The notes beneath the pieces are model-generated. The model saw only the letters and a program-made list of their open reading frames with translations, searched no databases and was not told the origin of the DNA. Both the position numbers and the translations under genes were made by a program. A DNA stretch of 64,000 bases from Escherichia coli (lineage in GTDB: Bacteria > Pseudomonadota > Gammaproteobacteria > Enterobacterales > Enterobacteriaceae): NCBI RefSeq assembly GCF_030013205.1, contig NZ_CP122648.1, one strand, 5' to 3'. Below, in pieces: positions 32,764-47,729 of this stretch. The first letter of the stretch is position 1, and each line of letters opens with the position of its first letter.

Positions 32764-32778
32764 CGCTCTGACCGTTAC

Positions 32779-32809
32779 AAAAAGAAAAAGCGCCCCGTTG
32801 CCGGAGCGC
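32779..32809 (-). terminator. intrinsic terminator for the leftward RHH operon (also abuts the stop of the antirepressor gene)
   Basis: Stem GCGCCCCG/CGGAGCGC (7 of 8 pairs) with loop TTGC. On the minus strand it is followed by TTTTTCTTTTT. Confidence 0.6.
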
Positions 32810-33069
32810 CTTTGTGAACGAATAGCCTACTGCGCCATATTGCTTACTGTCTACGAGGCAGATTATAGCGTTGTGGTCGCACAGAGTGAAGGCGCTGATC
32901 ACCGTTACTACAGCACACCAGAAATGCAGAATATTTTGCTGCAAAATGTCGTTGGCCACGCTGTCCGGAAAGCAAAAAATTTTGCTGGTGGCGTGACTGA
33001 TACGATTTTTTCTGGTTGCTCGGTGCTGATCAACTTAACCTGGACTTATGTACAACATTGCAACTATTC

Positions 33070-33216
33070 CTACTTTAAGCTGAATGTAACTTTACCTATA
33101 TCATTAGAGGTATGGTCGCGCTTGACCTCAATTTCACCATTTTGTAGCCCTGCTACAAAAAAATATAAAAGTGTCAATGTTGCTGCAATCAGTAACCATT
33201 TTCCAAAAATATACAT
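33070..33216 (-). CDS. possible 48-aa membrane peptide
   Basis: Unlisted small ORF MYIFGKWLLIAATLTLLYFFVAGLQNGEIEVKRDHTSNDIGKVTFSLK. It lies 21 nt downstream of the RHH gene. It has one predicted TM helix and a weak RBS. Confidence 0.3.
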   Translation of the reverse strand: MYIFGKWLLIAATLTLLYFFVAGLQNGEIEVKRDHTSNDIGKVTFSLK

Positions 33217-33237
33217 TCTTGATTTTACCCTTAATCG

Positions 33238-33411
33238 TCAACCTTTTGGCACGATGCCTCGCTGTTGTAATTCTTTGCGGAGCACTCGTTTAATCCAGGT
33301 AGCTAATGAGGTGTCGCCGTCTGCTTTGGCTGCCTCCTCAAGTTGTGCCCTAAATTCTTCTGGTAGCCGCATTTGGTATGGTGGCGATCGTTTTTCTAAT
33401 GGTGTTGACAT
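33238..33411 (-). CDS. ribbon-helix-helix (Arc/MetJ-like) DNA-binding protein, 57 aa
   Basis: Unlisted ORF MSTPLEKRSPPYQMRLPEEFRAQLEEAAKADGDTSLATWIKRVLRKELQQRGIVPKG. It shows a beta-strand then two-helix RHH pattern. GGTAATTACC palindromes overlap its start. Confidence 0.6.
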   Translation of the reverse strand: MSTPLEKRSPPYQMRLPEEFRAQLEEAAKADGDTSLATWIKRVLRKELQQRGIVPKG

Positions 33412-33451
33412 GGTAATTACCCATAATTACTATAGTTACACGGTAATTACC
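33412..33451. promoter_or_regulatory. operator-like palindromes GGTAATTACC x2
   Basis: GGTAATTACC occurs at 33412-33421 and 33442-33451, with a degenerate copy (CATAATTACT) between them. They lie immediately upstream of and overlapping the RHH start codon. Confidence 0.55.
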
Positions 33452-33547
33452 ATTGTACTTACCATTGCAAAAAAAACAACGCCCCGGACTGCGGGAACAG
33501 TACCAGGGCGTCTAACCACCAACGATAGCGAAAGTATCGAGGTAGCT

Positions 33548-33751
33548 ATGATAAATCATACCACACACCCGCAAGGGCGGGACTCGCACAACCTGAATAA
33601 ATACATCTGGCGTTTTATCGCCCTGAGCACGGCACAACCGCGCGTGATTCACATCGAGGCCACCAGCGAACAGGAAGCCCGCCAGCAATCTCCTGATGGC
33701 TGCGTGATGGTATTCGCTGCCCGTATTCGCCAGGAGGTACGCCATGATTAA
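33548..33751 (+). CDS. small protein, possibly Icd-like (P4-family cell-division-inhibitor-like)
   Basis: 67 aa (MINHTTHPQGRDSHNLNKYIWRFIALSTAQPRV..VFAARIRQEVRHD) with GAGG upstream. It is the only plausible part of the listed 331-aa ORF 32756..33751. The family call is from memory only. Confidence 0.4.
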   Translation: MINHTTHPQGRDSHNLNKYIWRFIALSTAQPRVIHIEATSEQEARQQSPDGCVMVFAARIRQEVRHD

Positions 33752-34109
33752 CCTGTCACTTACCGACCTTCACCGCATTCAGTTTGACGAGAAATTTACC
33801 GGGCAGCTACTGGTCCATGTGGAGAACGGGCGCATAGTGCGTAATTACCACCTGCCGGATGGTGCAATTGCCGGAAGCGTTGAAGCATTGCTGGAAATGG
33901 CAGAACGTGCGCGACTGATTAAGCCGTTAACGTGCCATCACGATGATGATCTGCATTTTACCGGACGCATGGTGAGCCATTATGAAAACGGCGTTGAGGT
34001 ATCCCGCGAACGTCTGCGTGATGATTGCTGTTTCGGCACATTGCCGGAATTTATCGAATTGCTGACCGATTGCGGTTATCAGGTAATTCAGAGCAAGACG
34101 CAGGAGTAA
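33744..34109 (+). CDS. hypothetical protein (121 aa)
   Basis: ATGA overlap with the preceding gene. No recognisable motif. Confidence 0.55.
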   Translation: MINLSLTDLHRIQFDEKFTGQLLVHVENGRIVRNYHLPDGAIAGSVEALLEMAERARLIKPLTCHHDDDLHFTGRMVSHYENGVEVSRERLRDDCCFGTLPEFIELLTDCGYQVIQSKTQE

Positions 34110-34115
34110 AAAACC

Positions 34116-34406
34116 ATGAAAAAGAAAAATTCTGGCTTTACTGCCAGCGGCCCCGCTCGGCCTGAAATCAAACACGGCGATATTTACCGCGACACCAGAC
34201 GTGGGGGACGAGTGGTTATTCGTCACGTTACGCCAGGCAATATCACCTACCGCCGTGAGGCTTACGAATATGACTGCGTAATGCCGCGCCGTCAGTTTGA
34301 GCGTGATTTTATTCTGGTGGAAAACAAACAACAGGCGGTGGCGAGACGTGCAGCCACGAATATTAAAAAAATCCGGGCAATGTTGGTTGCGGGAGGTAAG
34401 AAGTGA
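34116..34406 (+). CDS. hypothetical small basic protein (96 aa)
   Basis: Its stop overlaps the primase start. It occupies a position typical of small accessory genes upstream of P4-type primases. Confidence 0.55.
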   Translation: MKKKNSGFTASGPARPEIKHGDIYRDTRRGGRVVIRHVTPGNITYRREAYEYDCVMPRRQFERDFILVENKQQAVARRAATNIKKIRAMLVAGGKK

Positions 34407-36208
34407 AAAACGCCCCGAATTTAAAATATCAGCCGAAGGATAAATTCACTGAGGTAATCATTTTTGCCGGGACGGATGCTTACGCCCATGCTCAACACTG
34501 GATTGAAAGCGAAGGACGAAAACACGGCGATAACGTACCACCTGTTTACCTGGGGCCGAAGCAACTGGCAGACCTGGCGAACATCCGCATTATCGACGAA
34601 GGGCGCCGCTTTGCGCGTGTCTATATCGCAGGGGAGATCGAACCAATTCAGATCAACGCTATCGCCGAAAAGCTGGCACTGGCTGGCGTACAGGAGGCGA
34701 AATTATACAAAGGCATCACCGACCGGGAGCCGGAGAACTGGCGCGATTACCTGCAACGGATCCGCGAACAGGCAGAGCGCGGGGAAGTTTCAGCGATGAA
34801 ATTAGTCACAAAAAATAGTGACCTACCCAGGCCAGCACTAAATCAGATGGGAGCCAGCCAGAGAGGGGAAGTATTGCTTGAATATTATGGAAGGGCACTG
34901 GCTATAAATGACGATTCTGATGTAGTTCACCATTACAACGGAATTGTCTGGGAGCCTGTATCTGATAAGGAACTCCAGCGGTCTATGGCGAAGATTTTTA
35001 TTGATGCTGGAATCAGTTATTCGCAAAACGCCATTAAATTTGCCGTAGACACAATGAAATTGAGCCTGCCTGTTATGGGCGGGGCAGACAGGAATCTTAT
35101 TGGATTCAGTAACGGGGTATTTGATACCCGGACAGGAAATTTTCGGGAGCATAACAAAAATGACTGGTTGTTAAATGCCAGTGAATTACCGTTCAGCCCA
35201 CCAGCAGAGGGGGAAACGCTGGCAACACATGCGCCGAATTTCTGGAAGTGGCTGCGTCGTTCGGTGGCAAATAACGATCGTAAAGCGGATCGCGTACTGG
35301 CGGCATTATTCATGGTACTGGCGAACCGGTACGACTGGCAGTTATTCCTTGAGGTAACGGGGCCGGGCGGAAGCGGTAAAAGTGTGATGGCGGAGATTTG
35401 TACCATGCTGGCGGGTAAGGCCAATACAGTATCGGCGAGCATGAAGGCGCTGGAAGACGCGAGGGAACGAGCGTTAGTGGTGGGATATTCTCTGATTATC
35501 ATGCCTGACATGACCCGCTACGCAGGTGATGGTGCTGGGATTAAGGCCATTACAGGCGGTGACAAGGTGGCAATCGACCCGAAACATAAAGCCCCCTACT
35601 CCACACGTATTCCGGCGGTAGTGCTGGCAGTAAACAATAACGCCATGTCATTCAGTGATCGCAGTGGAGGGATCTCGCGTCGTAGGGTGATATTTAATTT
35701 CTCTGAGGTCGTACCGGAGAACGAACGCGATCCCATGCTGGTGGAAAAAATAGAAGGCGAACTGGCGGTAGTGATTCGCCATTTGCTTACACGATTTGCC
35801 GACCAGGACGAAGCGAAAAGACTACTTTATGAGCAGCAAAAATCAGAAGAAGCACTGTTAATAAAGCGTGAAGGTGATTCGCTGGTGGACTTCTGCGGTT
35901 ATCTGATGTCGTTGGTTAAATGTGAGGGGATGATAGTAGGTAATGCAGAAATAGTGCCATTTAGCCCGAGGCGATATCTGTATCATGCTTATTTGGCTTA
36001 TATGTCTGCGCATGGTCTGGGAAAACCGGTATCACTGACACGCTTTGGTACAGATATGCCAGGGGCAATGGCTGAGTACGGAAAGGAGTACAAGCGGGCT
36101 AAATGCACTAAAGGTCCAGATAAAGGGCGAACGATCACAAATGTTCTGTTAGATAAAGATGCTGATGGATGGTTACCAGCAGCGGCAGGCATTAACGACA
36201 GAACATGA
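34403..36208 (+). CDS. P4-alpha/D5-type primase-helicase (replication initiator)
   Basis: 601 aa. It has Walker A VTGPGGSGKS and Walker B-like LIIMPD. The overall layout matches the phage/plasmid primase P4-family C-terminal domain. Confidence 0.8.
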   Translation: MKNAPNLKYQPKDKFTEVIIFAGTDAYAHAQHWIESEGRKHGDNVPPVYLGPKQLADLANIRIIDEGRRFARVYIAGEIEPIQINAIAEKLALAGVQEAKLYKGITDREPENWRDYLQRIREQAERGEVSAMKLVTKNSDLPRPALNQMGASQRGEVLLEYYGRALAINDDSDVVHHYNGIVWEPVSDKELQRSMAKIFIDAGISYSQNAIKFAVDTMKLSLPVMGGADRNLIGFSNGVFDTRTGNFREHNKNDWLLNASELPFSPPAEGETLATHAPNFWKWLRRSVANNDRKADRVLAALFMVLANRYDWQLFLEVTGPGGSGKSVMAEICTMLAGKANTVSASMKALEDARERALVVGYSLIIMPDMTRYAGDGAGIKAITGGDKVAIDPKHKAPYSTRIPAVVLAVNNNAMSFSDRSGGISRRRVIFNFSEVVPENERDPMLVEKIEGELAVVIRHLLTRFADQDEAKRLLYEQQKSEEALLIKREGDSLVDFCGYLMSLVKCEGMIVGNAEIVPFSPRRYLYHAYLAYMSAHGLGKPVSLTRFGTDMPGAMAEYGKEYKRAKCTKGPDKGRTITNVLLDKDADGWLPAAAGINDRT

Positions 36209-36236
36209 TACGAAATTTATAAGTTGAAACTTAAAA

Positions 36237-36575
36237 GTAGACGGTTGGTAGACAGATACACTTAACCCTCTACCAACCATCTACTAATTAATGTTTTGAA
36301 TTATATAGGTATTTTTAATGTGGTAGAGAGGTGGGCAGTTATTTCTATATTCCTAAACCACGGGGGGTATATAAAAAAACAGATAGTTAAGGGTTCATTT
36401 TTTAAATTTCTCTTTTAACTGTCTACACTGTCTACCATTTAGTAAAAATCATTAATTATCAATGTATTAATGCGGTAGACAGTTAGTAGACAGTTTGCAG
36501 ATTGTTTTTTTGTTATGAGTTAATAACATTAAATAAATCAATCAATTATATCGGTAGACAGTTGGTAGACAGTTG
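36237..36575. repeat. iteron-type replication origin (GGTAGACAGTT repeats flanking an AT-rich core)
   Basis: Copies are GTAGACGGTTGGTAGACAGA (36237-56); inverted copies CTCTACCAACCATCTAC (36269-85) and CTGTCTACACTGTCTACC (36419-36); GCGGTAGACAGTTAGTAGACAGTT (36472-95); and TCGGTAGACAGTTGGTAGACAGTT (36552-75). The field lies directly downstream of the primase gene. Confidence 0.8.
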
Positions 36576-36580
36576 TAACG

Positions 36581-37123
36581 ATGGGGCAAAGCATGACTAA
36601 GCTGACCATTAACAGAAAACCGAAAGGCATTTATGGCACGCCGCAGAAAACGACGCAGGCGGCACAGGAGCAGGATAAAACCACGTCGGCGCATAAAGTG
36701 ATGCCCGGTAACCAGAAAGCGCAGCAGAAGCCCACAGGGGCGACACCGTGGCGGCATATGACCAAGCGCCAGCGCAAAAACCGCAGGCGCATTAACCGCC
36801 TCACTGAGTTGTGGCCTGAATTATTCAGCCGGGAAGCACCGAAGCCGCTTAAGGTGGGGATATTCGACGACCTGATGCAGGATCTCGCCGTCAGGGGGCT
36901 GGCATTCGGTCCAGGGGCATTGCGTGCGACGCTGGCATCTTATGCACAGTGTCCGCGCTATTACCGCGCCTTAATGGCTGGTGGGGTACGCTACGACCTG
37001 AAAGGCCAGCCGTGCGGCGAGGTGACACCACAGGAACAACAGGACGCAGAAACGCGGCTGGTGGCGCTGAATGAGAAGCGCAAACGTCAGCGCCGGGTAG
37101 CAAAGGAGAAAACAGGCGCATGA
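36581..37123 (+). CDS. ProQ/FinO-domain RNA-binding protein
   Basis: 180 aa. The segment LWPELFSREAPKPLKVGIFDDLMQD..LRATLASYAQCPRYYRALMAGGVRYDLKGQPCGEV parallels the ProQ/FinO fold consensus (PLKIGI..L..AL..Y......Y......G..R.DL.G...G.V). Confidence 0.8.
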   Translation: MGQSMTKLTINRKPKGIYGTPQKTTQAAQEQDKTTSAHKVMPGNQKAQQKPTGATPWRHMTKRQRKNRRRINRLTELWPELFSREAPKPLKVGIFDDLMQDLAVRGLAFGPGALRATLASYAQCPRYYRALMAGGVRYDLKGQPCGEVTPQEQQDAETRLVALNEKRKRQRRVAKEKTGA

Positions 37124-37407
37124 TTCACGACAGCAAAGCGGAAGCACTGGAAGCGCGTGGTCTGTACCGGAGAGCGGCGGCGCGGTGGGCTGAGGTCATC
37201 ATGCTGGCGAATGATGACAAGGCACGGGAACAGGCGGCAAAACGTCGCGCGGAATGTATCCGCAAGGCAGCACGCCCACCAGCACGGCAGGATAATTTCG
37301 GGGAGATGCGCGAAACCATCAGCCGGGCACATGCCGGGATGGGATTACATCAGCCCAATGGTAAGGCATTCAGGAAATACCCTGGATCGAAAAATTGCAG
37401 TCAGTGA
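37120..37407 (+). CDS. PerC-family transcriptional regulator
   Basis: 95 aa. AEALEARGLYRRAAARWAEVIM...RRAECIRKAARPP matches the PerC/Pch signature as I remember it. ATGA overlap with the previous gene. Confidence 0.65.
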   Translation: MIHDSKAEALEARGLYRRAAARWAEVIMLANDDKAREQAAKRRAECIRKAARPPARQDNFGEMRETISRAHAGMGLHQPNGKAFRKYPGSKNCSQ

Positions 37408-37602
37408 CGGAGGCCGGGATTTTTCCCGGCTTTTTTGTGCCAGTAAAAAGCCCGCAGCCAGAAGTGTTGCGGGCTTTGTTTTTCAGGTGATTGAAGTCAA
37501 TGGGAAGAACGCGATCATCATGCGTTATTGTTTCATAAATTGCAATGATGTAGATCGTCATTTCAGTTTGTGCAATCATAATCGTTGTTTTGTTCAGGAG
37601 AT

Positions 37603-37782
37603 ATGACTATGAGAAAAGCCAGCGTGAAACCTGTTTTACTCGCTCGTGATCAGATTGAAGCATTACAGCGCATCCAGGACGAGGAACGCCGCAATTCTCC
37701 GCTGGGGATTGCTCCGAGCATTCATGAGGTCGCCCGGCGTTTAATGCAGCGGGCGCTTTATCCCGTAGAACGTCCGGCCTGA
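37603..37782 (+). CDS. small hypothetical protein (about 57-59 aa; start 37603 or 37609)
   Basis: ORF 37585..37782. GGAG precedes the ATGs. The product MTMRKASVKPVLLARDQIEALQRIQDEERRN.. is possibly RHH-like. Confidence 0.45.
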   Translation: MTMRKASVKPVLLARDQIEALQRIQDEERRNSPLGIAPSIHEVARRLMQRALYPVERPA

Positions 37783-37821
37783 TGGTCGTGATTTTTTGGT
37801 GAAAAAAGAGAGGTGGTAAAA

Positions 37822-38400
37822 ATGCCAGCAAGCAAAGAAGATTTGCGATTAAAACTGATGGAGGTGGTTAACGCTCTGTCAGAGTCGCAGGGCAGCACTC
37901 CGCAGGAGATTATCGAAATTCTGAATGCGATCCCCGCACAGGATTTCATAAAAGAGGATAACGCTAATCAAAACATCGTCGCGTCAGTCGAAGATGAATC
38001 CTCACTGGCAGAAGCCCAGGCCAAAGCGGATTCCGCATACAGCAATATGGGCCGTCGAGCTCCGGCCCCGTTTGCTGGTGAAAAGTCGATGGATTACCGC
38101 AAGCGTGCATTAATTGGCGCACAGAAGCTGGCTAAAAAATTCAGTGATGTGGATATTCGTTCCGTTTCAGATTCTGCAACGCTGGCGGTGCTGGAAGATC
38201 AGATTTACAAGGCTGCTCAGGAAAGTGCTCAGTGGGCCGTGGAAAACACGCCGGGTTATTTGACTAAAAAAGTCAGGATGGATGAAGCCGGGCGCCGGAT
38301 TACTGAATATCAGGGGGATCCGAATAACTGGCTTAGTGCTTTCAAAATCCCTCCCCGTCGCCTGGTCAAAATTAACGTTGCAAGCCTCGCGGGGGCATGA
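37822..38400 (+). CDS. hypothetical protein (192 aa), first gene of the morphogenesis-like block
   Basis: ORF 37813..38400. The ATG at 37822 follows GAGGTGG. The protein is helical and acidic, with no motif recognised. Confidence 0.55.
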   Translation: MPASKEDLRLKLMEVVNALSESQGSTPQEIIEILNAIPAQDFIKEDNANQNIVASVEDESSLAEAQAKADSAYSNMGRRAPAPFAGEKSMDYRKRALIGAQKLAKKFSDVDIRSVSDSATLAVLEDQIYKAAQESAQWAVENTPGYLTKKVRMDEAGRRITEYQGDPNNWLSAFKIPPRRLVKINVASLAGA

Positions 38401-38464
38401 AAAACGTGCTGATTTCAGCCCTGCCGGATTTGGCGGGGCTTATTGATTATAACCGGGTGACATT

Positions 38465-39148
38465 ATGCTTTTAACAGAAATTGAGGCGGCAAAGCAGATT
38501 CGGGACGGTCAGCTACCGTCGCCTTATCAGTTCTCCAACATGTGGCTGGTTAACCTGCGTATTACAGGGACTGGCATGGCCTACCGCGCCGAAGAAAAAG
38601 AATTTGTCTGGCGTTCACCGCAAACTTATCTCAATCCGCAGTTCCTGGAACGTTGCGCCGGAGTACCCGTCATTATCGACCATCCCGAAGGCAAAACCAT
38701 TGAAGACGTTGGCGAACGGTCGCGCATTATTGGCACCGTCATGTTGCCGTATATTCGCGGTGACGAGGTGTGGGGTGTATGCCGGATTTACGGGCAGGAA
38801 ATCATCGATTACATCCAGAAAGCACGGGGGGAGGTATCCACCAGCCCGTCGGTTGTGTTTTGTGGTGCGTCCGGTGGGGCAGAAGTTCCTGATGTAATGG
38901 GCGAGGACAATTTTTTCATTGAGGGTACGCCATTTCTTATCGATCACGTTGCGCTCGTACCGTTGGGCGTATGGGATAAGGGCGGGAAACCATCAGGTGT
39001 GGAAGTAACAACGCCGACAGAAGAAGAACAGCTCGCCGGAATGGTCCGTGAAGTTATTGATGCGGCCTGCAAGCCAGCTCTGGAAAAACTGGAAGAAATA
39101 TCCGGGCGGCTGGATCAACTGGAAAAAAACAGAGTGAGTGAATCATGA
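38465..39148 (+). CDS. hypothetical phage-structural-module protein (227 aa), in the slot usually held by a major tail protein
   Basis: It lies directly upstream of the chaperone-like and tape-measure-like genes, and its stop overlaps the next start. The function is inferred from position only. Confidence 0.4.
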   Translation: MLLTEIEAAKQIRDGQLPSPYQFSNMWLVNLRITGTGMAYRAEEKEFVWRSPQTYLNPQFLERCAGVPVIIDHPEGKTIEDVGERSRIIGTVMLPYIRGDEVWGVCRIYGQEIIDYIQKARGEVSTSPSVVFCGASGGAEVPDVMGEDNFFIEGTPFLIDHVALVPLGVWDKGGKPSGVEVTTPTEEEQLAGMVREVIDAACKPALEKLEEISGRLDQLEKNRVSES

Positions 39149-39762
39149 AAATTGCTAAAAACTTAAATCTGATTATCCCTGTGCGCACTGAAAAGGGTAA
39201 TGGCTGGCTCCATGCCACGCCGATCAGCAAAGAGGTGTTTAAAGAGCATTTCTTCATCCTGAGTAAAACCTTTTCTGCCATTTTTTCTGAAGGTCTTGGT
39301 GTTGTTGCGGGTCCGCGCGTTGCCTGCCTTATGCTGGAGAAAATCTCCCGTGACTCCGGTTTATGGGATGGGGAGAAAGGCATACGTAATACGCTCATAA
39401 ACGAAATTATTCGCCTGGCAAACCTTGTTTATCCAGTGGAGGGCAAAGGCTACGACACAATCCCTCTCGATATGGCGCTGGAGCGTGAAATCGTTGATTT
39501 GGACGAAGTGGCGGGTGAACTTGTTTTTTTTACATGCGTCTCGTCGATAAATTCCCCGGAGCAGACGAAGGGGACTATGGATGCGGTGAATGGAATATGG
39601 AGCACTCAATGCTCGTCCTTGAGTCTTACGGAATGGATCGATTCATTGCCGACATTGAAGCCTGCCGTCAGTTCTGGCGCGACGGCGAACACGTCATCAG
39701 CGACATCCTCGACTACTCAGCCGGAGCCGGATTCAGAGACATCTGTGCAGATTCCGGTCTGA
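39145..39762 (+). CDS. tail-assembly-chaperone-like protein (G-like, 0 frame)
   Basis: 205-aa ORF immediately upstream of the tape-measure-like gene. It contains the slip site T TTT TTT at codons 127-129. The 0-frame tail after the slip site is S/T-rich and low-complexity. Confidence 0.5.
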   Translation: MKIAKNLNLIIPVRTEKGNGWLHATPISKEVFKEHFFILSKTFSAIFSEGLGVVAGPRVACLMLEKISRDSGLWDGEKGIRNTLINEIIRLANLVYPVEGKGYDTIPLDMALEREIVDLDEVAGELVFFTCVSSINSPEQTKGTMDAVNGIWSTQCSSLSLTEWIDSLPTLKPAVSSGATANTSSATSSTTQPEPDSETSVQIPV

Positions 39763-39827
39763 ATGTAAAAACAGCAGCTCAGTTTCGTGAGCTGCTCAAA
39801 TTCAAAAATCCCGCAGGAGTATTGTAA
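39525..39827 (+). other. putative -1 programmed frameshift site (39525-39531) plus T-like extension frame
   Basis: The T8 run at 39524-39531 gives the heptamer T TTT TTT in the 0 frame. The -1 frame is open from there to 39827 (..YMRLVDKFPGADEGDYGCGEW..FKNPAGVL). It ends in TAATG, overlapping the ATG of the tape-measure-like gene. Confidence 0.55.
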
Positions 39828-41866
39828 TGTCAGGTAATCAGATGCCAGTTCTGACGCTGGACGTTAATGAAGAACACCTCAAACGGCTTGAGGCAATTTT
39901 TGAAAAGTATCGCAACGGGCTGATGATCGGCCCTGCCGGAACGCCGATGAAAATACCGGGGCAAAGTGGGCGCAGCGTGGGGGCAGGCTTACCCGTGGCG
40001 GCAAAATCTGGTCGGACAGGACCGGATGTATCCGGGAGAGTGAGGGACGAAAAAGGGCGCTTTGTCGGCAGCGGAAAAACAGCAGATTCGTTCGTAAGCA
40101 ACTATAAAGGTCGCGGCGAAACGATGTTTGATAAGTATCTCAGCGGGCTGGGGAAAAATGCCCAACAGACGCTGAAAACTTACAAGCAGATCAATTCTAC
40201 ACTACAGACGACCACTTCAAGATTAAACAACCTGTTTAAAACAACCGTATCGTGGGGAACAAAACTCTCGGTTATGGGCGTTGCCGGACCGTTTGGCTTT
40301 GGCATGATGTCCCGTAGTGTTGTAGAGAAACAGAAAAATGCAGATGAGCTGGTGGCAACGCCAGGAGAGTTAAAGGCGGCAGAAAGCACTTATTCGCCTT
40401 ATTTTTCCGGTGTTGGCAATGTGCTCAATACACTGGCAGCAGCACAAAATGATATATCGCATCCTGCCCGCGTCGGCCTGCTTAATCTGGGGCTAAATCC
40501 TGATAAAAACGCGACTGAAAACCTGCCTGTATTCCTGAAAAAGGTTGCAGAGCTGGCAAAGGAATATCAGGGAAGTGGTCTTACCCAGAGCATGCTCAGG
40601 GGAAGAGGGCTTGGATGGGTAAATTTTGGTCTTACTAACCAGTTAGTCAAATATCAGGACAAAATACCTGAACTCAACAAAGAGTTTTCGTTACGTGCAG
40701 CGCAGAATGATTCGTTACTGACCTCTGCACATACAAGTAAATATCAGAATATTACCAGTAACCTGGAAAAAAACTGGGATCGGCTTACCAGCGGATTTCA
40801 GGGAGCAATGGCGGGGAATGAAGACGCTTTAATCAGAATGTCTGATGGTGCCACGAATGCTGCCCTGAATTTCATGAATGGTGAGAACTTTAAAAGGATT
40901 CTGACGGATGTAGAAACGGGGCTGGATAAACTTGGTAAGTACGTAAATGGCCCGGATTTTAATAACGACCTGAACAATTTTGCCGAAAACGTTGCAAAGG
41001 TTGTTAAGGCACTTAGCGGGTTTGTTGGTTTTGCGGTTGAACATCCCTGGCTTTTTGGGGCCGCAGTACTTGCTGGACCATCGAGAGTTGGTGCTGTGGC
41101 AGCCACAACGACCGGAGTTGCCGCCCGTGTTGTTGGTGGAAGTCTTCTTGGGGCTACAGCCGGAACAGTAGCTGGATTGGCTATTCCTACAAATGACACA
41201 CCTACCACCAGTGAGGAAATGAAAGGGCTGGAGGGGCGTTTCAACTTTGATTATTTTAACGAAGTGCAGGAGTGGCAAAAAAACAATCCGGGTAAGGTCT
41301 GGCCTGGAGGATTGCAGGGATTTTCAAATCAAGTAAACAGATCTGCATATTTATCCAGAGGGATCAGGAATAACAATCCCGGAAATCTTAATTTCGCAGG
41401 ACAAAAAGGGGCTACCCTGGAATCGGGGCCAAATGCCCGTTTTGCCAGCTTCCCGACGATGCTGGAAGGCATTGCCGCCTTAGATCGGCAGGTAATGCTA
41501 TACCTGAAACGCGGCAAAAATACGATTGATCAGATTATTGATATTTATGCCCCTTCATCTGATGGAAATAACACATCGTCCTATAAAAGCTATCTCTCTC
41601 AGTACACCGGATTAGGTGTTAAGGAGAAAATCGATGGTTCTAATTTTGAGGTCATGAAAAAGCTAATTCAGGGCATTATTAACCATGAAAATGGTGCTGC
41701 CGCTAAAGCTGTAAGTGTTGAAGATGTGATCCGGGCGCTGGCTATGAATCGTGGGATTGTCCCTGCAGCAGGAAACAATGATCAGAACGTTAAGTTGGAA
41801 ATTGTTCGGAACGCTGGTGCCGATTACTTCGCGCAACTAATTGGTGCTCAACGGTTCCTGGGATGA
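39827..41866 (+). CDS. tape-measure-like protein (679 aa)
   Basis: It has a long helical N-terminal part, then a Gly/Ala-rich hydrophobic segment (FGAAVLAGPSRVGAVAATTTGVAARVVGGSLLGATAGTVAGLAIP). The C-terminal globular domain carries RNNNPGNLNF. The gene follows the chaperone-like gene. Confidence 0.55.
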   Translation: MSGNQMPVLTLDVNEEHLKRLEAIFEKYRNGLMIGPAGTPMKIPGQSGRSVGAGLPVAAKSGRTGPDVSGRVRDEKGRFVGSGKTADSFVSNYKGRGETMFDKYLSGLGKNAQQTLKTYKQINSTLQTTTSRLNNLFKTTVSWGTKLSVMGVAGPFGFGMMSRSVVEKQKNADELVATPGELKAAESTYSPYFSGVGNVLNTLAAAQNDISHPARVGLLNLGLNPDKNATENLPVFLKKVAELAKEYQGSGLTQSMLRGRGLGWVNFGLTNQLVKYQDKIPELNKEFSLRAAQNDSLLTSAHTSKYQNITSNLEKNWDRLTSGFQGAMAGNEDALIRMSDGATNAALNFMNGENFKRILTDVETGLDKLGKYVNGPDFNNDLNNFAENVAKVVKALSGFVGFAVEHPWLFGAAVLAGPSRVGAVAATTTGVAARVVGGSLLGATAGTVAGLAIPTNDTPTTSEEMKGLEGRFNFDYFNEVQEWQKNNPGKVWPGGLQGFSNQVNRSAYLSRGIRNNNPGNLNFAGQKGATLESGPNARFASFPTMLEGIAALDRQVMLYLKRGKNTIDQIIDIYAPSSDGNNTSSYKSYLSQYTGLGVKEKIDGSNFEVMKKLIQGIINHENGAAAKAVSVEDVIRALAMNRGIVPAAGNNDQNVKLEIVRNAGADYFAQLIGAQRFLG

Positions 41867-41917
41867 TTTAAATACACGCGCTTTCCGGCGCATTAATACA
41901 GTCTGAGGGGAAGTGTC

Positions 41918-42445
41918 ATGTTTATGAGCAAGGCAGAATATGCCAAACACAAAGGCGTAAGCCGCCAGACAGTTTACGACTGGATCGAGAAAGGCGAAGT
42001 GATCATGTCTGGCAAAAAAATTGATGTGGAAGCGACAGAGCAGCGGAACAGCCCACCAGCACAGGGAAAAGATACCGTTTCTGAAATGTGGCCAGAGAGA
42101 ACGCTGGAAATGACGTGGGGCGAGTTCTGGAAAGCAGTTAAGGCCAGAGACGGTAAAATCCCTGCACCAGTAACGGACAATGACATACAGCAGCGTGTAC
42201 AGGATGCAGCCGGGGAACTATGCTGTGAAGTGCAATTTCTTGATGATGGTGCTATCTGCCTTGAGGATTATGCTGGGCAATATTACTTTGAGCAGTATGA
42301 TTTTCGGGAAAATGCCAGGCTGGCAATTCGTATGCTGCGTTGTGAGCTCTGCTATGTTGCAGGTGATTGTCCCGATGAGCTGGATAACTGGAGTGAAGCC
42401 GGACTAAACGCCCTGGCTGAGTGGGAAAAATCAGGCCATCAATGA
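41918..42445 (+). CDS. Nu1/TerS-like winged-HTH protein (175 aa)
   Basis: The N-terminus MSKAEYAKHKGVSRQTVYDWIEKGEV resembles lambda Nu1-type small terminase HTH domains. A repeat field lies immediately downstream. Confidence 0.5.
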   Translation: MFMSKAEYAKHKGVSRQTVYDWIEKGEVIMSGKKIDVEATEQRNSPPAQGKDTVSEMWPERTLEMTWGEFWKAVKARDGKIPAPVTDNDIQQRVQDAAGELCCEVQFLDDGAICLEDYAGQYYFEQYDFRENARLAIRMLRCELCYVAGDCPDELDNWSEAGLNALAEWEKSGHQ

Positions 42446-42450
42446 CCTCA

Positions 42451-42732
42451 AAAAGTGTCAAGTTGAGCAGCTTGCCAGGTTGACACTTTACACTCTGAAC
42501 GCGAAAAAGTGTCAACCTCGCTGTAAGCCCCGCCATTACTGGCCTTTCGCCAGATTTACCACGTCAAAAAGCCGAAAAAATCGCGAAAAGTGTCAAGTTG
42601 CCATGCTTAGAAATGCTAAGGTTTGATAAGGTTTTTCGCGAAAAAGTGTCAAGTGTGTCAACCTGCGATGTTAAGATTTGTTAAGGTCTTAAGCCGGAAA
42701 GTGTCAACCAGCCCCCTAAGATTTCCTAAGGT
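42451..42732. repeat. repeat field: at least 6 copies of AAAGTGTCAA(C/G) interleaved with TAAG..TAAGGT repeats (candidate cosB/pac-like or second origin)
   Basis: AAAGTGTCAA copies lie at 42451-62, 42479-91 (inverted), 42503-17, 42585-600, 42641-62 (double) and 42686-700. Three carry the extended form CGCGAAAAAGTGTCAA. The second family reads CTTAGAAATGCTAAGGTTTGATAAGGT, GTTAAGATTTGTTAAGGT and CCTAAGATTTCCTAAGGT. Confidence 0.75.
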
Positions 42733-42739
42733 GTAAACC

Positions 42740-42919
42740 ATGACCATCACCGAAGCCGATTTGCTGGAGATGATCCGCAGCATTGCCGGAATCAAACAAC
42801 CAGCAAGCAAAATTAACAGGTGTTCAGCGCCTGTTTCCGTTGTGCTGCAGCAGGAACGCCACCAGCATGATGATGTGAGGCCGTATCAGTGGCGGAAACC
42901 GGACAGGCCGCGACGGTGA
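42740..42919 (+). CDS. possible small ORF (59 aa)
   Basis: Unlisted ORF MTITEADLLEMIRSIAGIKQPASKINRC.. It starts just after the repeat field. No motif and only a weak RBS, so it may be a gene remnant. Confidence 0.25.
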   Translation: MTITEADLLEMIRSIAGIKQPASKINRCSAPVSVVLQQERHQHDDVRPYQWRKPDRPRR

Positions 42920-43211
42920 GCGGAACGTTCGGTAAGGCTACAGCCAAGCCAAACATTAAGCCTACGGGTAACCCTTCGAAGGGGCTTTAAAGGGGAGATG
43001 ATTATCCTTACCAGTTGATAAACAAGCAAACCTCAAATTTGAGGTTTGTATCTGCCTGACTTATTTTTGTGCTAAGTTGTTGATATATCCGACGACACAA
43101 ATTTGCGTTCTGTGGCTGGTGGTGGCGAGTTACGACCGATCATTTCCTTCCTGGCAGGTTACATCCTGCTGCTCAACTACTACGGTAGCCACTACGATTA
43201 ACTACGCGATG

Positions 43212-43240
43212 CCGATATGGGGATTCCCATATCGGTTTAT
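43212..43240 (+). terminator. intrinsic terminator
   Basis: Perfect 10-bp stem CCGATATGGG/CCCATATCGG with loop GATT, followed by TTTAT. Confidence 0.6.
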
Positions 43241-43306
43241 CCGTGATCATCCACCAGCTTGATCACGGTTAACAGGGGATGTGTAATCCCCAAGCGAGTG
43301 ATAAAT

Positions 43307-43336
43307 GTGTATAGAAATGTGTATAGAATTTATTTT
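43307..43336 (+). repeat. arm-type repeat GTGTATAGAAATGTGTATAGAATTTATTTT (partner of 29271-29307)
   Basis: See the partner feature. It lies 50 bp left of the second att core. Confidence 0.6.
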
Positions 43337-43385
43337 AGAACTCGCGAATGCGCCTTTATTACTGGCCTTGTGGCTTGTTGTATTG

Positions 43386-43403
43386 TTCCCTTCGCCCGCT
43401 CCA
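43386..43403 (+). repeat. att core copy 2: TTCCCTTCGCCCGCTCCA (18-bp direct repeat of the glyU 3' end)
   Basis: Exact match to 29138-29155. Confidence 0.9.
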
Positions 43404-43900
43404 GAATCTCCCCAGGTGGAGAAGACTAAAAAAGTCTTCTCTGTCAGCAACTTAAACAGTTACCTATTTAATTTGCTTAGGAGTTCTACCATTGTGATCC
43501 GCCCTTAGTAACTGTCACGTTAAGTTACTCGGTGAGATGACAGTATAACCTAACGTTGGCGGCAGTTGCACCTCTCACACCGCGATAGCACAACGTGAAG
43601 ATAAAGCCCATCCTGGCATTGTAATGTCATCGACAGACTGAACACACGCATTTAAGCCCGATGTGCGGCCTTGTGGCTGCGTAAACAGGTTTATGGTGAT
43701 ATTGGTCCTTGCAAACCATATGCAAGCTCTATCAGCGTTTCAGCCACGCTCCCAACGGGTACACGGTTATCCTGATAAGGTGTGATCTTTCTGACAATCT
43801 GATGAAGTCGCTACGCTCCCGCTTGTTGCTGTATCACCAACGGGGCTTTATGGTTTCTATTGTCTATAATAATCTCACAATTCCCCTGCATGAGGTTGAT

Positions 43901-44107
43901 ATGACTGTTAGCTACAAGATTACTTATGAGCATAGAGACGGTGATCAAATTAGAATGGAAGAGGTTTTATTCCATTCAGAGCATGAACCAACAAAAGATG
44001 AAATTCATGATGCAGTAAGAAAAGATACTGTGAGATTTAATTCTCCATCTAATGGAGTAACGGCTGTTTCAGGGTTTAAAGTGATTTCGGTTGTCCCTGT
44101 TCCATGA
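43901..44107 (+). CDS. hypothetical protein (68 aa)
   Basis: The internal ATG of ORF 43709..44107 is preceded by GAGG (tgaggttgatATG). Product begins MTVSYKITYEHRDGDQIRMEE... Confidence 0.45.
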   Translation: MTVSYKITYEHRDGDQIRMEEVLFHSEHEPTKDEIHDAVRKDTVRFNSPSNGVTAVSGFKVISVVPVP

Positions 44108-44140
44108 ATGGTTATAGAAGGGGCTGGAAGCCCCTAATTA

Positions 44141-44461
44141 TTACTTCTTAATATCGCCAGTGCATTGATATTCGATAGTCACAAGTGTTTGCATACAACC
44201 AGATGAAGAAGGTTGTGAACATTGAGAAGTGAATCCACCAAAAGGCTCGGCTCCTGAATATCCCCAAGCGGCACAACGCGCTTTGGCTGCATTCATGCCT
44301 TGTTGTGGATCTACAACAGGACTTTCAAACATACCGTAAGAATAACTCATCCTAACTGTGCCGTCTGATTTGCTTCCACCAGTTGGAACGAGTTGTTTTT
44401 TTGTTGCACATCCAGAAATAATCAATGTTGAAGCAAGTAACAGCATTAAACTTTTGCGCAT
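44141..44461 (-). CDS. small lipoprotein (YecR-like by recollection)
   Basis: 106 aa. The signal peptide and lipobox read MRKSLMLLLASTLIISGC. The mature part contains four Cys. Confidence 0.65.
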   Translation of the reverse strand: MRKSLMLLLASTLIISGCATKKQLVPTGGSKSDGTVRMSYSYGMFESPVVDPQQGMNAAKARCAAWGYSGAEPFGGFTSQCSQPSSSGCMQTLVTIEYQCTGDIKK

Positions 44462-44605
44462 GTAAATAATCCCAAGAGATAATGGTTATGTATTGATTTA
44501 AAGCGTTTTTAGATTAATGCATTAACTTAGCAAAATTAAGTCTTTTCTGATTGTTTGCAGAGTAAAAATGAGTTGCTTTCGAAATTATTTCGGATGTTTA
44601 TTGTA

Positions 44606-44773
44606 TTACGGTTTTTCAAACCGTCTAACTATTGTCGCTATTGAATGGGCAATAATAGCAAGAGGATTCATTTCGTCATTGGAGGCAACAAAAAGTCGGT
44701 AACTGATAGCTACAACGAATGAAACAATAACGAGAAAGCGGATAGTGCTAAGATGTTTTGAAGATAAATGCAT
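44606..44773 (-). CDS. possible 55-aa hydrophobic peptide
   Basis: Unlisted ORF MHLSSKHLSTIRFLVIVSFVVAISYRLFVASNDEMNPLAIIAHSIATIVRRFEKP. No clear RBS. Confidence 0.25.
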   Translation of the reverse strand: MHLSSKHLSTIRFLVIVSFVVAISYRLFVASNDEMNPLAIIAHSIATIVRRFEKP

Positions 44774-45113
44774 AACGCCCCCTAAATGAATGTGAGGGGG
44801 ATTAAATCATGCAAATTTGTTGTGTGCAATACTGGTAATTTATCCTAATAGTCTACTATTCACCTCAATCTACGTCAACCAATATTTGATGTAGATTTGA
44901 TTTTCTTTTAAAAACAATATGTTGCAATTTGTTGGGTTTTGGGGTTAGGTTGTTTTTTGGACGTTTCCATCAAGTGTAAAGATACGTTTAGCCTTCATAG
45001 TGAGTTCAGTTACTGTCTTTTTCTCTGAAATCGGCGCATACGTGATCATCGCTTAACGAGAAGATCAGCGCCGTCAGGTCCATGCAGCGACAATTCTGAA
45101 ATATCAGGAGGCA

Positions 45114-45665
45114 TTACGCTTCCTGCTCTTTCTTGATACGTTGCACCGTCTGTGTGCTGACACTGAAATCTTTTGCTACGCTCCGAATTGATCCACCATT
45201 CGCGAGAGCGGCAACAATTCCCGCTCGATCAATTGCTTTTCCATTACCACGTTTTGCTATACGCCCAGCTGCCTTAGCTGCGGCGATCCCTTCACGTTGA
45301 CGCTCAAGCATCATTTCACGTTCCATTTGTGCCACTGCTGCAAGCACTGTGAGCATCATATTCCCTGCGGGAGAGTTCTTCCCTGTCTTAAAGTCTTCTT
45401 TATGGAAATGCACAGACACGCCGCGCTCTGTTAATTGCTCAACCGTTGCCAGAAGGTCGGCTGTATTACGGCAAAGGCGATCAATACTGTGAACATGCAA
45501 AACATCACCTTCCCGCACATAGTTCATCATTGCCTCAAACTGTGGGCGCTGGGTATTCTTGCCTGACGCTTTATCTTCAAAGACTTTATCAAGAGCTACT
45601 CCAGCTAATTGACGGTCTGTGTTTTGTTGCACAGTCGATACCCTAATGTATCCAATATTAGCCAT
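45114..45665 (-). CDS. serine recombinase (resolvase/invertase family)
   Basis: 183 aa. The N-terminus MANIGYIRVSTVQQNTDRQ contains the catalytic Ser. It also has the DRLCRN motif and a C-terminal HTH (GGSIRSVAKDFSVSTQTVQRI). Confidence 0.9.
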   Translation of the reverse strand: MANIGYIRVSTVQQNTDRQLAGVALDKVFEDKASGKNTQRPQFEAMMNYVREGDVLHVHSIDRLCRNTADLLATVEQLTERGVSVHFHKEDFKTGKNSPAGNMMLTVLAAVAQMEREMMLERQREGIAAAKAAGRIAKRGNGKAIDRAGIVAALANGGSIRSVAKDFSVSTQTVQRIKKEQEA

Positions 45666-45680
45666 TTTCTTTATTCCTTC

Positions 45681-45798
45681 TGTGTTGATTTGTGTGTAGT
45701 GATTATTGATCGTGTTGATTAGGTGTGTAAAGGACTTTTTTCACTACGAAATTCGAAGGTTTTTAGTGTGGTGATTTAGCCTGCTTTATCACTACACG
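45681..45798. promoter_or_regulatory. res-like nested imperfect inverted repeats upstream of the recombinase gene
   Basis: TGTGTAGTGAT (45693-703) pairs with ATCACTACACG (45788-98). TCACTACGAA (45741-50) pairs with TAGTGTGGTGA (45765-75). There are also direct repeats TGTGTTGATT / CGTGTTGATT. Confidence 0.45.
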
Positions 45799-46166
45799 TC
45801 TTGCATGAGAATCATGTAGTTACGTTTTGGTAAAATTAGCAAGCTATTAAATAGTGTGTTTATTTTGAAAAAATAATTTTTTGTTGCATTAAAGAAAACT
45901 TGTTCGACAAATAATAGATTGATTTTTAATCAATAATTTCTGATAGTGCTCTGTAAGCCGCATTACACAAGGCTTTGCGAAAGTGATGTAAAAGTGAAGA
46001 AAGTAAGAATTGCACTTTTAAGCTACTTTTCATTGAATTTTTAGTATGGAATTACACAGGGATTAATCATCAATTACATTGAATTTAAGCCTGTTTTAGA
46101 TGTTTAATTTTGGTAGCAAGAAACACTTTTAGAAGATCATTGCACAGATGTTATGTGATAAATGGA

Positions 46167-46325
46167 TGTAACGATGGGTTACATTCAGCTATCTGAAATA
46201 CTCTCTGTAAGAAATTTGGTAGTAACGATTCGTTACATAGACTAATTATTGAATGTAACGATATTACACATCGGTAGTAACGATACGTTACATCGGCAGA
46301 TGATTGGTTGTAACGAAAGGTTACA
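46167..46325. repeat. array of five phased 17-bp palindromes (T/A)GTAACGA-N3-(G/C)GTTACA
   Basis: Boxes: TGTAACGATGGGTTACA (46167-83), AGTAACGATTCGTTACA (46221-37), TGTAACGATATTACACA (46254-70), AGTAACGATACGTTACA (46276-92) and TGTAACGAAAGGTTACA (46309-25). Centre spacings are 54, 33, 22 and 33 bp. The T-type and A-type boxes alternate. Confidence 0.8.
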
Positions 46326-46414
46326 CAATAAGACTAACATCTATAATACTAATAATAAAACTAACTATTAAACTATATAATATAATTCTTTTTTATCTTT
46401 ATAAGAATAATTAT

Positions 46415-46775
46415 AGGGATACCCGTTAGGGAGTCTAACGACTATCCCTTAATCTATTGGCATTCGCCAGAACCTTGCACAAGTTAGAGTGTTAGTCGTT
46501 AGACTGCTTGTCATAACACATAGTTTTTGTTTGTTGATGTTAGTTAGTAGATCTATGTTCGCTTTCCGCTCACAACGAATATGTAATCTACTATGTGCAA
46601 ATAGCCTACGGCTTGCGTAAGGCTAAATAGTCTTGCGCTGTGCGCAGAACGATAATTAACTAACTACCATCTAACGATCATCAATCATCTAAAATAAATT
46701 TCTTGTGCAATGTTCTTGCGAATGCAATTAGGGTAGCGTTACCCCTTTGGGGATGCTAACGCATAACTATAGATC
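46415..46775. repeat. pair of ~75-bp imperfect inverted repeats flanking a ~200-bp segment
   Basis: The left arm (46415-46492) ends in ..TTGGCATTCGCCAGAACCTTGCACAAG. The right arm (46700-46775) has a reverse complement ending in ..ATTGCATTCGCAAGAACATTGCACAAG. Each arm also contains an internal GTTAG/CTAAC-type hairpin. Confidence 0.7.
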
Positions 46776-47206
46776 AACCATCAAACAGACAAAAAAGAAA
46801 AATATGGTTTAAAGATGTTAGGTAGTAGATGAGTTTCTACCGCTTAAATCAAGCCGTAGGCGAGCTAAACGTATATAAGGTAGGGAAACACTTAGCGGTA
46901 ATAGATTAGCTCGTTATAGAGATTCTGAGGAGCTTTACAGGTATTTTATAAGGTGTCTGAAATTAGATTTTATCTACCATCACCTTTTCATATACCTAAC
47001 AAATACAAAATAAGCACCTTAAATAAGCCTCTGGCGAGCTAAACGGTCATTACATAAGGGAATGTATTGTTTTTATCAAAACCTCGTTAGAACGCGTTTT
47101 AGAGCGTTATTAGACAATAATGAAGAATAGCACTACACAGGAGAGCACGAATTGCTAAGACAAATTATAAATTGCTGAAATAGATCGGATTTTTTGCAAA
47201 ATGGTA

Positions 47207-47235
47207 TTGACAAATGTCTCTTTCTGTGCAATAAT
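47207..47235 (+). promoter_or_regulatory. sigma70 promoter P1 (TTGACA-17-AATAAT with TGc extended -10)
   Basis: TTGACA at 47207-12, a 17-nt spacer ending in TGC, and AATAAT at 47230-35. It reads toward the 47358 operon. Confidence 0.65.
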
Positions 47236-47287
47236 AGGTATTAGAGGGACAGAAAACATTCTTATCCTCTAAGTAATTAAACCAATG

Positions 47288-47331
47288 CACCGCACTTTGA
47301 GCCGTCAGGCTGCAAGGTGTCTTTTTCTTTT
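47288..47331 (+). terminator. leader terminator/attenuator between P1 and the first gene
   Basis: CACCGCA..GCCgtcaGGC..TGCAAGGTG composite stem followed by TCTTTTTCTTTT. It lies 26 nt before the ATG at 47358. Confidence 0.5.
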
Positions 47332-47357
47332 AACCAAATAGAATAGGAGGTTAATTA

Positions 47358-47540
47358 ATGAAATATTTCACTCCACAGGATGTAGTAGAAGCCTGGAAAC
47401 GTGGTGAGATCAATCGTTTTAAAGTAAGGATGAACAGGAACACAGCGCGACGCTGTGGTTATCCAGAGCGTGAAAAATGTTTTGACGATGCACTAAAAAT
47501 TATTGATGAACTGCGTAAGGCAGAAGTAGAGAAAGAATAA
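47358..47540 (+). CDS. hypothetical protein (60 aa)
   Basis: Strong RBS (AGGAGGttaattaATG). No motif. Confidence 0.6.
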   Translation: MKYFTPQDVVEAWKRGEINRFKVRMNRNTARRCGYPEREKCFDDALKIIDELRKAEVEKE

Positions 47541-47561
47541 TAACAGGAGAAGGAGAAAACT

Positions 47562-47729
47562 ATGAGCGAAACTAAGAAACCAATTCCGCGCACTTACCTA
47601 CACGTTGACCCTGAAATCTTCAAGGTTTTATTTGCTGAAGCCAAGAAAAGGCAAATTATGGTCAGTGATTTGATGTTAGAAATCATTACTGAAGCAGCAG
47701 AGAACATCAAACAAAAAAAGGGTAAGTGA
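47562..47729 (+). CDS. ribbon-helix-helix (CopG-like) protein, 55 aa
   Basis: Unlisted ORF MSETKKPIPRTYLHVDPEIFKVLFAEAKKRQIMVSDLMLEIITEAAENIKQKKGK with RBS GGAGAAGGAG. It shows a beta-strand then helix-helix pattern. Confidence 0.6.
   Translation: MSETKKPIPRTYLHVDPEIFKVLFAEAKKRQIMVSDLMLEIITEAAENIKQKKGK

Follow-up and report, generated by a model that had tools for sequence, protein, structure and literature searches.

A candidate tail assembly chaperone and tape measure cassette with a -1 frameshift site in a satellite-like island of Escherichia coli

Genes at the locus

We analyzed a stretch of 64,000 nucleotides from Escherichia coli strain ETEC4079 (NCBI RefSeq assembly GCF_030013205.1, contig NZ_CP122648.1), referred to here as the window. 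The subject of the analysis is a pair of adjacent genes at 39145-41866, carried by a 14.2-kb island inserted at a tRNA-Gly gene. An original prediction, made from the sequence of the window alone, had read the first gene as a tail assembly chaperone with a -1 slip site (G and its frameshifted form GT) and the second as a gene for a tape measure protein (TMP). The pair comprises four features, for which lengths are given in amino acids (aa) and model confidence as the predicted local distance difference test (pLDDT) of AlphaFold2 (AF2):

39525-39531, + strand: slippery heptamer T_TTT_TTT, candidate programmed -1 site, within the T8 run 39524-39531.
39145-39762, + strand: G, predicted 0-frame tail assembly chaperone, 205 aa; full-length match to phrog_11810, tube-G-TMP synteny, AF2 pLDDT 83.7.
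39531-39827, + strand: T extension, read in the -1 frame for 98 codons past the slip and completing a predicted 227-aa GT; full-length match to phrog_14324, kept in distant phages.
39827-41866, + strand: predicted TMP, 679 aa; 83% identity to the Rac-prophage protein encoded between G and the baseplate genes, with C-terminal matches to PHROG and PDB entries.

Around the T8 run, the codons of open reading frame (ORF) 39145-39762 read GTT TTT TTT ACA, placing the heptamer in codons 127-129. The -1 frame has a stop just upstream, is open from 39519, 6 nt before the heptamer, and after the slip continues for 98 codons to a TAA at 39825-39827. This stop overlaps the start of the TMP gene as TAATG. 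On the other side, the stop of the DUF2213 gene (38465-39148) and the start of the G gene overlap as ATGA. The predicted products are G, of 205 aa, and GT, of 227 aa, with 129 aa in common. Both the position of the heptamer in the 0 frame and the open -1 frame that ends at 39827 in TAATG at the 679-aa gene had been given in the original prediction, and both were reproduced here.

Runs of T8 are scarce in the window, with 2 observed versus 11 expected from shuffled sequences. No stimulatory RNA structure emerged 3' of the slip site, where the fold was no better than that of shuffles (z -0.8). The lambda G/GT frameshift reportedly has no need of a downstream RNA structure.

Conservation of the slip site

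Homologous loci, about 90 in all, were drawn from sequenced phages, E. coli genomes, one-per-species genomes and viral contigs; the genome contigs gave 6 loci, and the viral contigs were far more productive. A T-rich slip site, mostly T8, was present at the homologous codon in all but four of these loci. Even where protein identity falls to 33-38% it was kept, with Pantoea phage PdC23, Yersinia phage vB_YenM_21.09 and environmental contigs as examples. Among 40 distinct local sequence variants, 37 had G/A-T8-A or T7, within flanks saturated with changes. In the phage loci that we checked, the -1 frame opens 6-36 nt before the site and closes at or just inside the next large gene.

Both frames downstream of the site are conserved. 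The 0-frame tail can be aligned across distant phages and ends on a conserved IPV/IPS, and the -1 tail is recognizable in distant phages by motifs such as YG.xRF.A[DE][IV]E. Separate PHROG families match the 0-frame ORF and the -1 ORF, each over its full length. Because the slip site is kept in nearly all of the roughly 90 loci and both downstream frames are conserved, the comparative evidence identifies the T8 tract as a programmed -1 frameshift site and not a sequencing error. A T9 tract was found at codon 127 of the G homologue in two of the roughly 90 loci (viral contigs L067 and L070), where it yields an in-frame G-T fusion of 227 aa; these are homopolymer read errors or else natural variants that make GT only. 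A third T9 locus (L073) is disrupted in other ways too.

Identity of the chaperone and the tape measure protein

In PdC23, vB_YenM_21.09, Rac-SA53 and E. coli prophages, the gene order is sheath (phrog_205), tube, G homologue, large protein and baseplate hub (phrog_196). The fuller order in myoviruses and intact prophages is head genes, connectors, sheath, a 143-aa protein in the tube position, the 205-aa homologue, a protein of 550-700 aa and the baseplate genes. In the island, G adjoins the 679-aa gene on its 5' side, with nothing between them. Since such a gene pair is by general agreement recognized from its phage-type placement combined with the frameshift, we assign 39145-41866 to a G/GT chaperone and its TMP with high confidence. 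The chaperone half of the original prediction is thereby upheld by the conserved heptamer, the two conserved frames and the synteny in real phages.

The AF2 model of G is confidently folded over residues 4-172. The slip point falls within this predicted fold throughout the family, so that 76 residues are specific to G, and GT is merely 22 residues longer. The 0-frame continuation had been described as low-complexity sequence rich in serine and threonine; this description fits residues 173-205, which are disordered and S/T-rich, but not residues 130-172, which belong to the confident fold. The fold check that the original prediction proposed for G gave weak evidence. With the solved chaperone folds of HK97 (2OB9) and PLE1 (5IR0) taken as the benchmark, the G model was confident, yet a Foldseek search with it returned no significant match in the PDB and, in BFVD, weak chaperone-annotated matches only. 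By sequence, neither the single G protein nor its profile matched any PDB entry. Pfam, NCBIfam and PADLOC gave no family for G or T, and their PHROG matches are families of unknown function.

The TMP has a helical region at residues ~100-410 (AF2), a Gly/Ala-rich hydrophobic stretch at ~406-475 and a C-terminal peptidoglycan hydrolase domain of the Pae87 type at ~508-640; overall confidence of the AF2 model is low (pLDDT 58.7). The C-terminal domain matches the endolysin PDB 7Q47 (E 1e-10), the N-terminus of the virion protein Gp29 (PDB 9VVP, E 2e-12), and phrog_2276 and related families, TMP-annotated PHROGs among them. Related TMP alleles have an SLT transglycosylase domain in its place. Homologues with 21-88% identity sit between the chaperone and baseplate hub genes in phages and prophages. 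That position, the 83% identity, the helical and Gly/Ala-rich regions and the hydrolase domain together agree with the earlier reading of the 679-aa gene as tape-measure-like.

The counterpart in the Rac-type prophage has 691 aa and is 83% identical over the full length. Residues 361-613 are nearly identical, and the divergence lies mainly at the N-proximal residues 40-80 and in the last 30-35 residues. As the two proteins differ by 12 aa in length, a change in tail length is unlikely, and the tail-length remodelling suggested at first was dropped as the main idea.

The island

The island is bounded by 18-bp direct repeats of the tRNA-Gly 3' end, at 29138-29155 and 43386-43403. Outside the morphogenetic operon, its features are as follows, att standing for the attachment site:

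29082-29155, + strand: tRNA-Gly(ccc), found by ARAGORN and Rfam; its 3' end, 29138-29155, is the left att repeat.
29320-30534, + strand: tyrosine integrase (PGAP; NCBIfam integrase domain, E 9e-97).
30579-30646, + strand: int-alpA RNA motif RF02996, between the integrase gene and the next gene (Rfam, 45.5 bits versus a gathering threshold of 35.8).
31688-31885, + strand: small helix-turn-helix (HTH) regulator in the AlpA position (PGAP 'helix-turn-helix transcriptional regulator').
34403-36208, + strand: D5_N/P4-type primase-helicase, the satellite replication gene (Pfam D5_N, DUF5906 and Pox_D5; PHROG DNA primase, E 3e-155).
36593-37407, + strand: ProQ/FinO-family gene and PerC-family regulator, just 5' of the morphogenetic operon (Pfam ProQ, E 6e-24; PGAP).
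43386-43403, + strand: right att repeat TTCCCTTCGCCCGCTCCA, the island end; exact 18-bp repeat of the tRNA 3' end.

AntA and an Icd-like gene are also present. The morphogenetic operon is tightly packed and consists of a 195-aa gene, a 227-aa DUF2213 gene, G/GT, TMP and a 175-aa HTH gene. Elsewhere, the same operon follows other integrases and primases; it is located at another chromosomal site, abgR-smrA, in strain STEC005 and also turned up in small viral contigs. Of 5,426 complete E. coli genomes, 33 have the island-type head module, at up to 4 copies each.

The element is very probably a satellite. Its organization fits a phage-inducible chromosomal island (PICI)-like satellite that is not strictly P4-like and is not a capsid-forming PICI (cf-PICI). 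Like a PICI, it is a discrete element in the range of ~10-15 kb with an integrase and att repeats (29138-43403), and it has an AlpA-type regulatory region, represented by the int-alpA RNA and the small HTH gene, and its own primase of the D5_N/P4 type. The int-alpA RNA motif (Rfam RF02996) is typical of P4/PICI-type elements. PICIs lack lysis genes and a full virion set; Pfam, PHROG and PGAP identified no lysis, capsid, portal, tube, sheath or fibre genes in 29138-43403, yet two tail genes are present. None of the cf-PICI set of major capsid protein, portal, large terminase and head-tail connectors was found in the same interval. The original prediction of a PICI/P4-like island is supported by the att repeats, the integrase, the int-alpA RNA, the D5/P4-type primase and the size of 14.2 kb. 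No families of the P4 Psu-Delta-Sid operon appeared in Pfam and PHROG scans of the island proteins. With P4, the island shares the primase type and the int-alpA motif only.

A second element is inserted in tandem at the same tRNA-Gly gene (43404-58150), with a 23-bp repeat of the tRNA 3' end at 58128-58150. It is AT-rich (35-40% GC), has an integrase gene on the minus strand near its right end (~56.8-58.0 kb), and carries genes annotated as 'major capsid protein' (~51.4-52.4 kb) and 'phage baseplate protein' as well as an IS3 copy. This 'major capsid protein' gene lies outside the 14.2-kb island and is unrelated to the Rac-type capsid gene.

Head-gene fragments and the last gene of the operon

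Three further genes make up the rest of the operon:

37822-38400, + strand: 195-aa scaffold-like protein; BLASTP 64% to residues 305-433 of the 440-aa Rac-type DUF2213 protein (E 1e-55), and positions 409-544 of phrog_6216.
38465-39148, + strand: 227-aa DUF2213 protein (Pfam DUF2213; phrog_530 head maturation protease; BLASTP 54%, E 2e-85).
41918-42445, + strand: 175-aa HTH protein, last gene of the operon (phrog_57, E 1e-6; Pfam HTH_17).

Residues 1-226 of the 440-aa phage protein, its N-terminal protease domain, are the counterpart of the 227-aa protein. A single head protease/scaffold gene of the phage is thus represented in the island by two genes in swapped order, the C-terminal part coming first. 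Both halves are intact and under purifying selection. By its sequence relations, the 195-aa protein is likely an alternative scaffold or targeting domain, and the split pair may act as a device for capsid redirection or interference. PGAP calls the 195-aa gene a 'NUDIX hydrolase', a name that we discarded because no profile supports it. A full-text literature search gave no description of the split, order-swapped DUF2213 arrangement. With these genes, the original statement that no tube-terminator, baseplate or capsid genes lie nearby holds in that the island has no capsid gene, and does not hold for head functions, as DUF2213 protease and scaffold-like domains directly adjoin the pair.

SaPI CpmB and P4 Sid redirect capsid size. 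The island compares with them in also carrying head parts, here helper-derived and present as separate scaffold-like and protease domains, which could divert or disturb procapsid assembly; there is no homology between the island proteins and SaPI CpmA/B, P4 Sid or Psu.

The N-terminus of the 175-aa protein resembles the HTH domains of small terminases and excisionases, and a role as a packaging or regulatory factor is possible from its sequence. A relationship to the Rac small terminase (TerS) was rejected for lack of similarity, and a sequence search of the PDB gave no matches. At 88-100% DNA identity, the gene has matches in ~164 complete E. coli genomes. This is far above the count of the tail cassette, and the gene is therefore a common part of related islands.

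Rac-type prophages as candidate helpers

The closest relatives of G and TMP are found in complete Rac-type lambdoid prophages (intR, recET, racR and others), whose tails are contractile and which encode a DUF1073 portal and a DUF2213 protease/scaffold. The island and such a prophage share a block of DNA homology that starts at the first nucleotide of the G gene and extends to 41754 (88% identity). As judged by these sequence relations, the cassette is derived from temperate Rac-type lambdoid E. coli phages with contractile tails.

A Rac-type sheath/tube prophage is present in at least 17 of the 33 island-bearing genomes versus 88 of 5,426 genomes overall (odds ratio ~80, Fisher p 7e-23, with clonal relatedness ignored). 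The genomic associations point to a Rac-type phage as the probable helper.

Some further observations concern these prophages. In Rac-SA53 (L096, 1147-2287), the sequenced Rac-type phage nearest to the candidate helper family, genes for the LT-IIa heat-labile enterotoxin are located between the lysis and terminase genes. A 64-nt non-coding block of the island (32926-32987) is 81% identical to a block in a Rac-type prophage (L092, 21162-21223), where it sits between the lysis and ParB/terminase genes. The block contains an imperfect palindrome, GCAGAATATTTTGC, and a repeated ATTTTGCTG; its sequence and placement could mean that both elements share a cis site for packaging or late regulation.

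Maintenance of the cassette and the slot it occupies

All six island copies that we analyzed keep G, the slip site, the T frame and a TMP of 669-680 aa, and the homologous islands have thus retained the slip site, as the original prediction would have it. In pairwise comparisons among the six copies, the ratio of nonsynonymous to synonymous substitution rates (dN/dS) was 0.05-0.10 for G and 0.15-0.20 for TMP. The tree of the G/T region places five island copies in one clade and the sixth on a separate deep branch. The island G/GT copies differ from the nearest phage copies by 8-13%.

The cassette lies in a slot between the DUF2213 and HTH genes whose content varies. Junction counts in complete E. 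coli genomes gave 14 genomes with G and TMP in the slot, 18 with an empty slot and 3 with an 88-aa gene and a baseplate hub gene. The 345-aa hub of the variant islands is 73% identical to the Rac-type phage hub. Examples are a sister island in E. coli 08-00022 (L094, 11401-12704), in which the slot holds the 88-aa gene and the 345-aa hub gene, and one in E. coli 52F4 (L093), in which the slot is empty. Hub-bearing and empty-slot sister islands alike have a SieB-like exclusion gene downstream.

Proposed function and alternatives

Satellites have long been assumed to use the tails of their helpers unaltered. We propose the following course of events for the island. Upon induction of, or infection by, a Rac-type helper, the island would express its late operon. 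Ribosomes are predicted to slip by -1 on T_TTT_TTT and thereby to produce GT besides G. The satellite G/GT would then load its own TMP into tails built from the tube, sheath and baseplate proteins of the helper, and the transducing particles would have chimeric tails, like those of the Vibrio cholerae PLE satellites. Since the island TMP differs from the prophage protein at an N-proximal stretch and in its last 30-35 residues and not in length, the pay-off would be a different allele for DNA delivery or partner compatibility, such as one that escapes exclusion or defence aimed at the TMP or one that gives a competitive edge over the helper.

Taken as a whole, the explanation that a satellite-borne G/GT and cognate TMP cassette contributes to chimeric island/helper tails is the one we favor, and we hold it to be probable. 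For the chimeric-tail function of the cassette on its own, which we derive by analogy, the balance is close to even and falls slightly on the side of doubt. The broader view, in which a PICI-like family of E. coli has a dedicated slot for interchangeable, helper-derived inner-tail cassettes that are built into chimeric tails, is put forward as a tentative proposal.

Several points weigh against this explanation. Pfam, PHROG, NCBIfam and PADLOC scans gave no annotated family for the first 500 residues of the TMP. The island TMP is close to the helper alleles, and a functional difference is not obvious. Low dN/dS among the islands could partly stem from recombination with phage copies that are selected in phages. 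Eighteen genomes have the island without the cassette, and the cassette is for this reason dispensable for the element. The co-occurrence statistic disregards clonality, and many of the island-bearing genomes belong to porcine enterotoxigenic E. coli (ETEC). Finally, of the 88 genomes with a Rac-type sheath/tube prophage, 60 were listed, and the source strain ETEC4079 is not one of these; place counts show no G copy outside its islands.

The chaperone-TMP block might be passive cargo, gained by recombination from the helper and without a role in the life cycle of the satellite. Its 88% DNA identity to the Rac-type prophage, with one stretch near identity, and the many islands of the family without the block would be expected under such a scenario. 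Nevertheless, six copies have stayed intact despite DNA divergence of up to 13%, with dN/dS of 0.05-0.2, and the island copies fall into clades of their own instead of beside individual phage copies. The ATGA and TAATG overlaps fit the block exactly into the operon, and other islands fill the same slot with a different tail cassette, the hub. We therefore regard passive cargo as unlikely, while according it some weight.

Alternatively, the island chaperone and TMP could serve in interference or defence, as competitors that spoil tail assembly in the helper or in incoming phages related to it. At both of its ends, where binding of partners is expected, the island TMP departs from the helper alleles, and satellites and prophages are known to direct defences at tail assembly, as in Tai (PMC11364771) and in Rta of PLE11 (PMC12987554). 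A satellite, however, needs tails itself; moreover, the island proteins gave no match to PADLOC defence models, and both look complete, conserved and structural rather than like truncated decoys. Interference is accordingly improbable in our view. A Tai-type system was set aside, since Tai consists of unrelated small proteins; mutations that escape Tai lie in the central tail fibre (J) or tail needle (PMC11364771).

A decayed prophage remnant fused to an integrase, with no satellite involved, would explain the phage structural genes and the split, rearranged head protease gene, but we judge it very improbable: the element is discrete, 14.2 kb between att repeats, with a full PICI-like early region including the int-alpA RNA and primase; its architecture recurs elsewhere with other integrases, at up to 4 copies per genome; and both protease/scaffold halves are under purifying selection. 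The possibility raised in the original prediction, that a homopolymer sequencing error or a phase-variable tract divides one gene, is rejected with near certainty, since, the T9 fusions of L067 and L070 and the disrupted T9 locus L073 notwithstanding, 37 of 40 variants, which come from independent genomes and sequenced phages, carry T8 or T7, and the 0-frame continuation is conserved, partly folded and closes on a conserved motif.

Comparison with known systems

The G/GT pair of lambda and the conserved frameshifted chaperone pair of long-tailed phages are reportedly treated in Levin et al. 1993 and Xu et al. 2004, and P2 E/E+E' is a frameshifted chaperone example from myoviruses. The island pair resembles lambda G/GT in that two overlapping frames, connected through a -1 slip at an X_XXY_YYZ heptamer, lie directly 5' of the gene for the tape measure; in the phage homologues, the pair follows the tube gene. 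It differs in that lambda GT holds nearly all of G, whereas the slip here occurs at codon 129 of 205. In addition, island G resembles no annotated chaperone family in sequence and gave no significant match by fold.

A satellite with its own chaperone and tape measure was considered unusual in the original prediction. This assessment has been overtaken by two precedents, Vibrio PLEs and mycobacterial EPIPs. Vibrio PLEs encode TMP, a tail assembly chaperone (TAC) and sometimes the hub BhuB, and form chimeric tails (Mathur, Boyd et al., Nature 2026; PMC12987554). A satellite-encoded TMP and chaperone were first demonstrated there, and predicted tmp genes have been noted in PLE-like elements and some cf-PICIs (PMC12987554). 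EPIP satellites carry TMP genes, and TMPs are said to be otherwise absent from satellites (preprint, PMC12822802). Our full-text literature search found no description of E. coli PICI-like islands with a chaperone and TMP cassette. What is new is thus the E. coli setting and satellite family, the optional and swappable slot, and the near-identity to helper alleles; inner-tail genes in satellites as such were already known.

EPIPs and the island are both satellites that lack most tail genes and yet encode a TMP. Unlike the island, EPIPs also encode capsid, scaffold and connector proteins and have a serine integrase (PMC12822802). Their tails are longer than those of the helper, whereas the island TMP is nearly of helper length.

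If the proposed explanation is true, the swapping of tail-interior alleles would be a general satellite strategy that is open to E. coli genetics. The cassette would alter which cells receive DNA, or evade exclusion or defence directed at the helper TMP or hub. The system would be a tractable one in which to ask why satellites replace inner tail proteins and how a satellite TMP wins over that of the helper, in a Rac-type helper family that includes Rac-SA53, a carrier of LT-II enterotoxin genes. Tail genes are forbidden components of a PICI or a cf-PICI in SatelliteFinder (PMC10085698). Because its PICI model excludes them, islands like that of ETEC4079 may be filtered out or under-counted, and catalogues that disqualify tail genes would, on the proposed explanation, have missed such satellites systematically.

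The closest parallel is with the Vibrio PLEs. In both cases a satellite carries adjacent chaperone and tape measure genes, related islands have a hub instead, and a myovirus helper has to supply the rest of the tail. Chimeric tails have been demonstrated for the PLEs, while the E. coli island is known from its sequence. PLE proteins are ~20% identical to the helper alleles, compared with 83-90% for the island proteins. The two also differ in satellite family and host, the island being PICI-like with an int-alpA RNA, a P4-type primase and a probably temperate helper; its cassette is optional within the island family, and no Rta-like inhibitor was identified in the island. The island thus suggests that inner-tail replacement of the PLE kind also occurs in an unrelated satellite family of E. 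coli, in this case with a probably temperate, Rac-type helper, an optional and interchangeable cassette and a textbook -1 frameshift in the chaperone gene.

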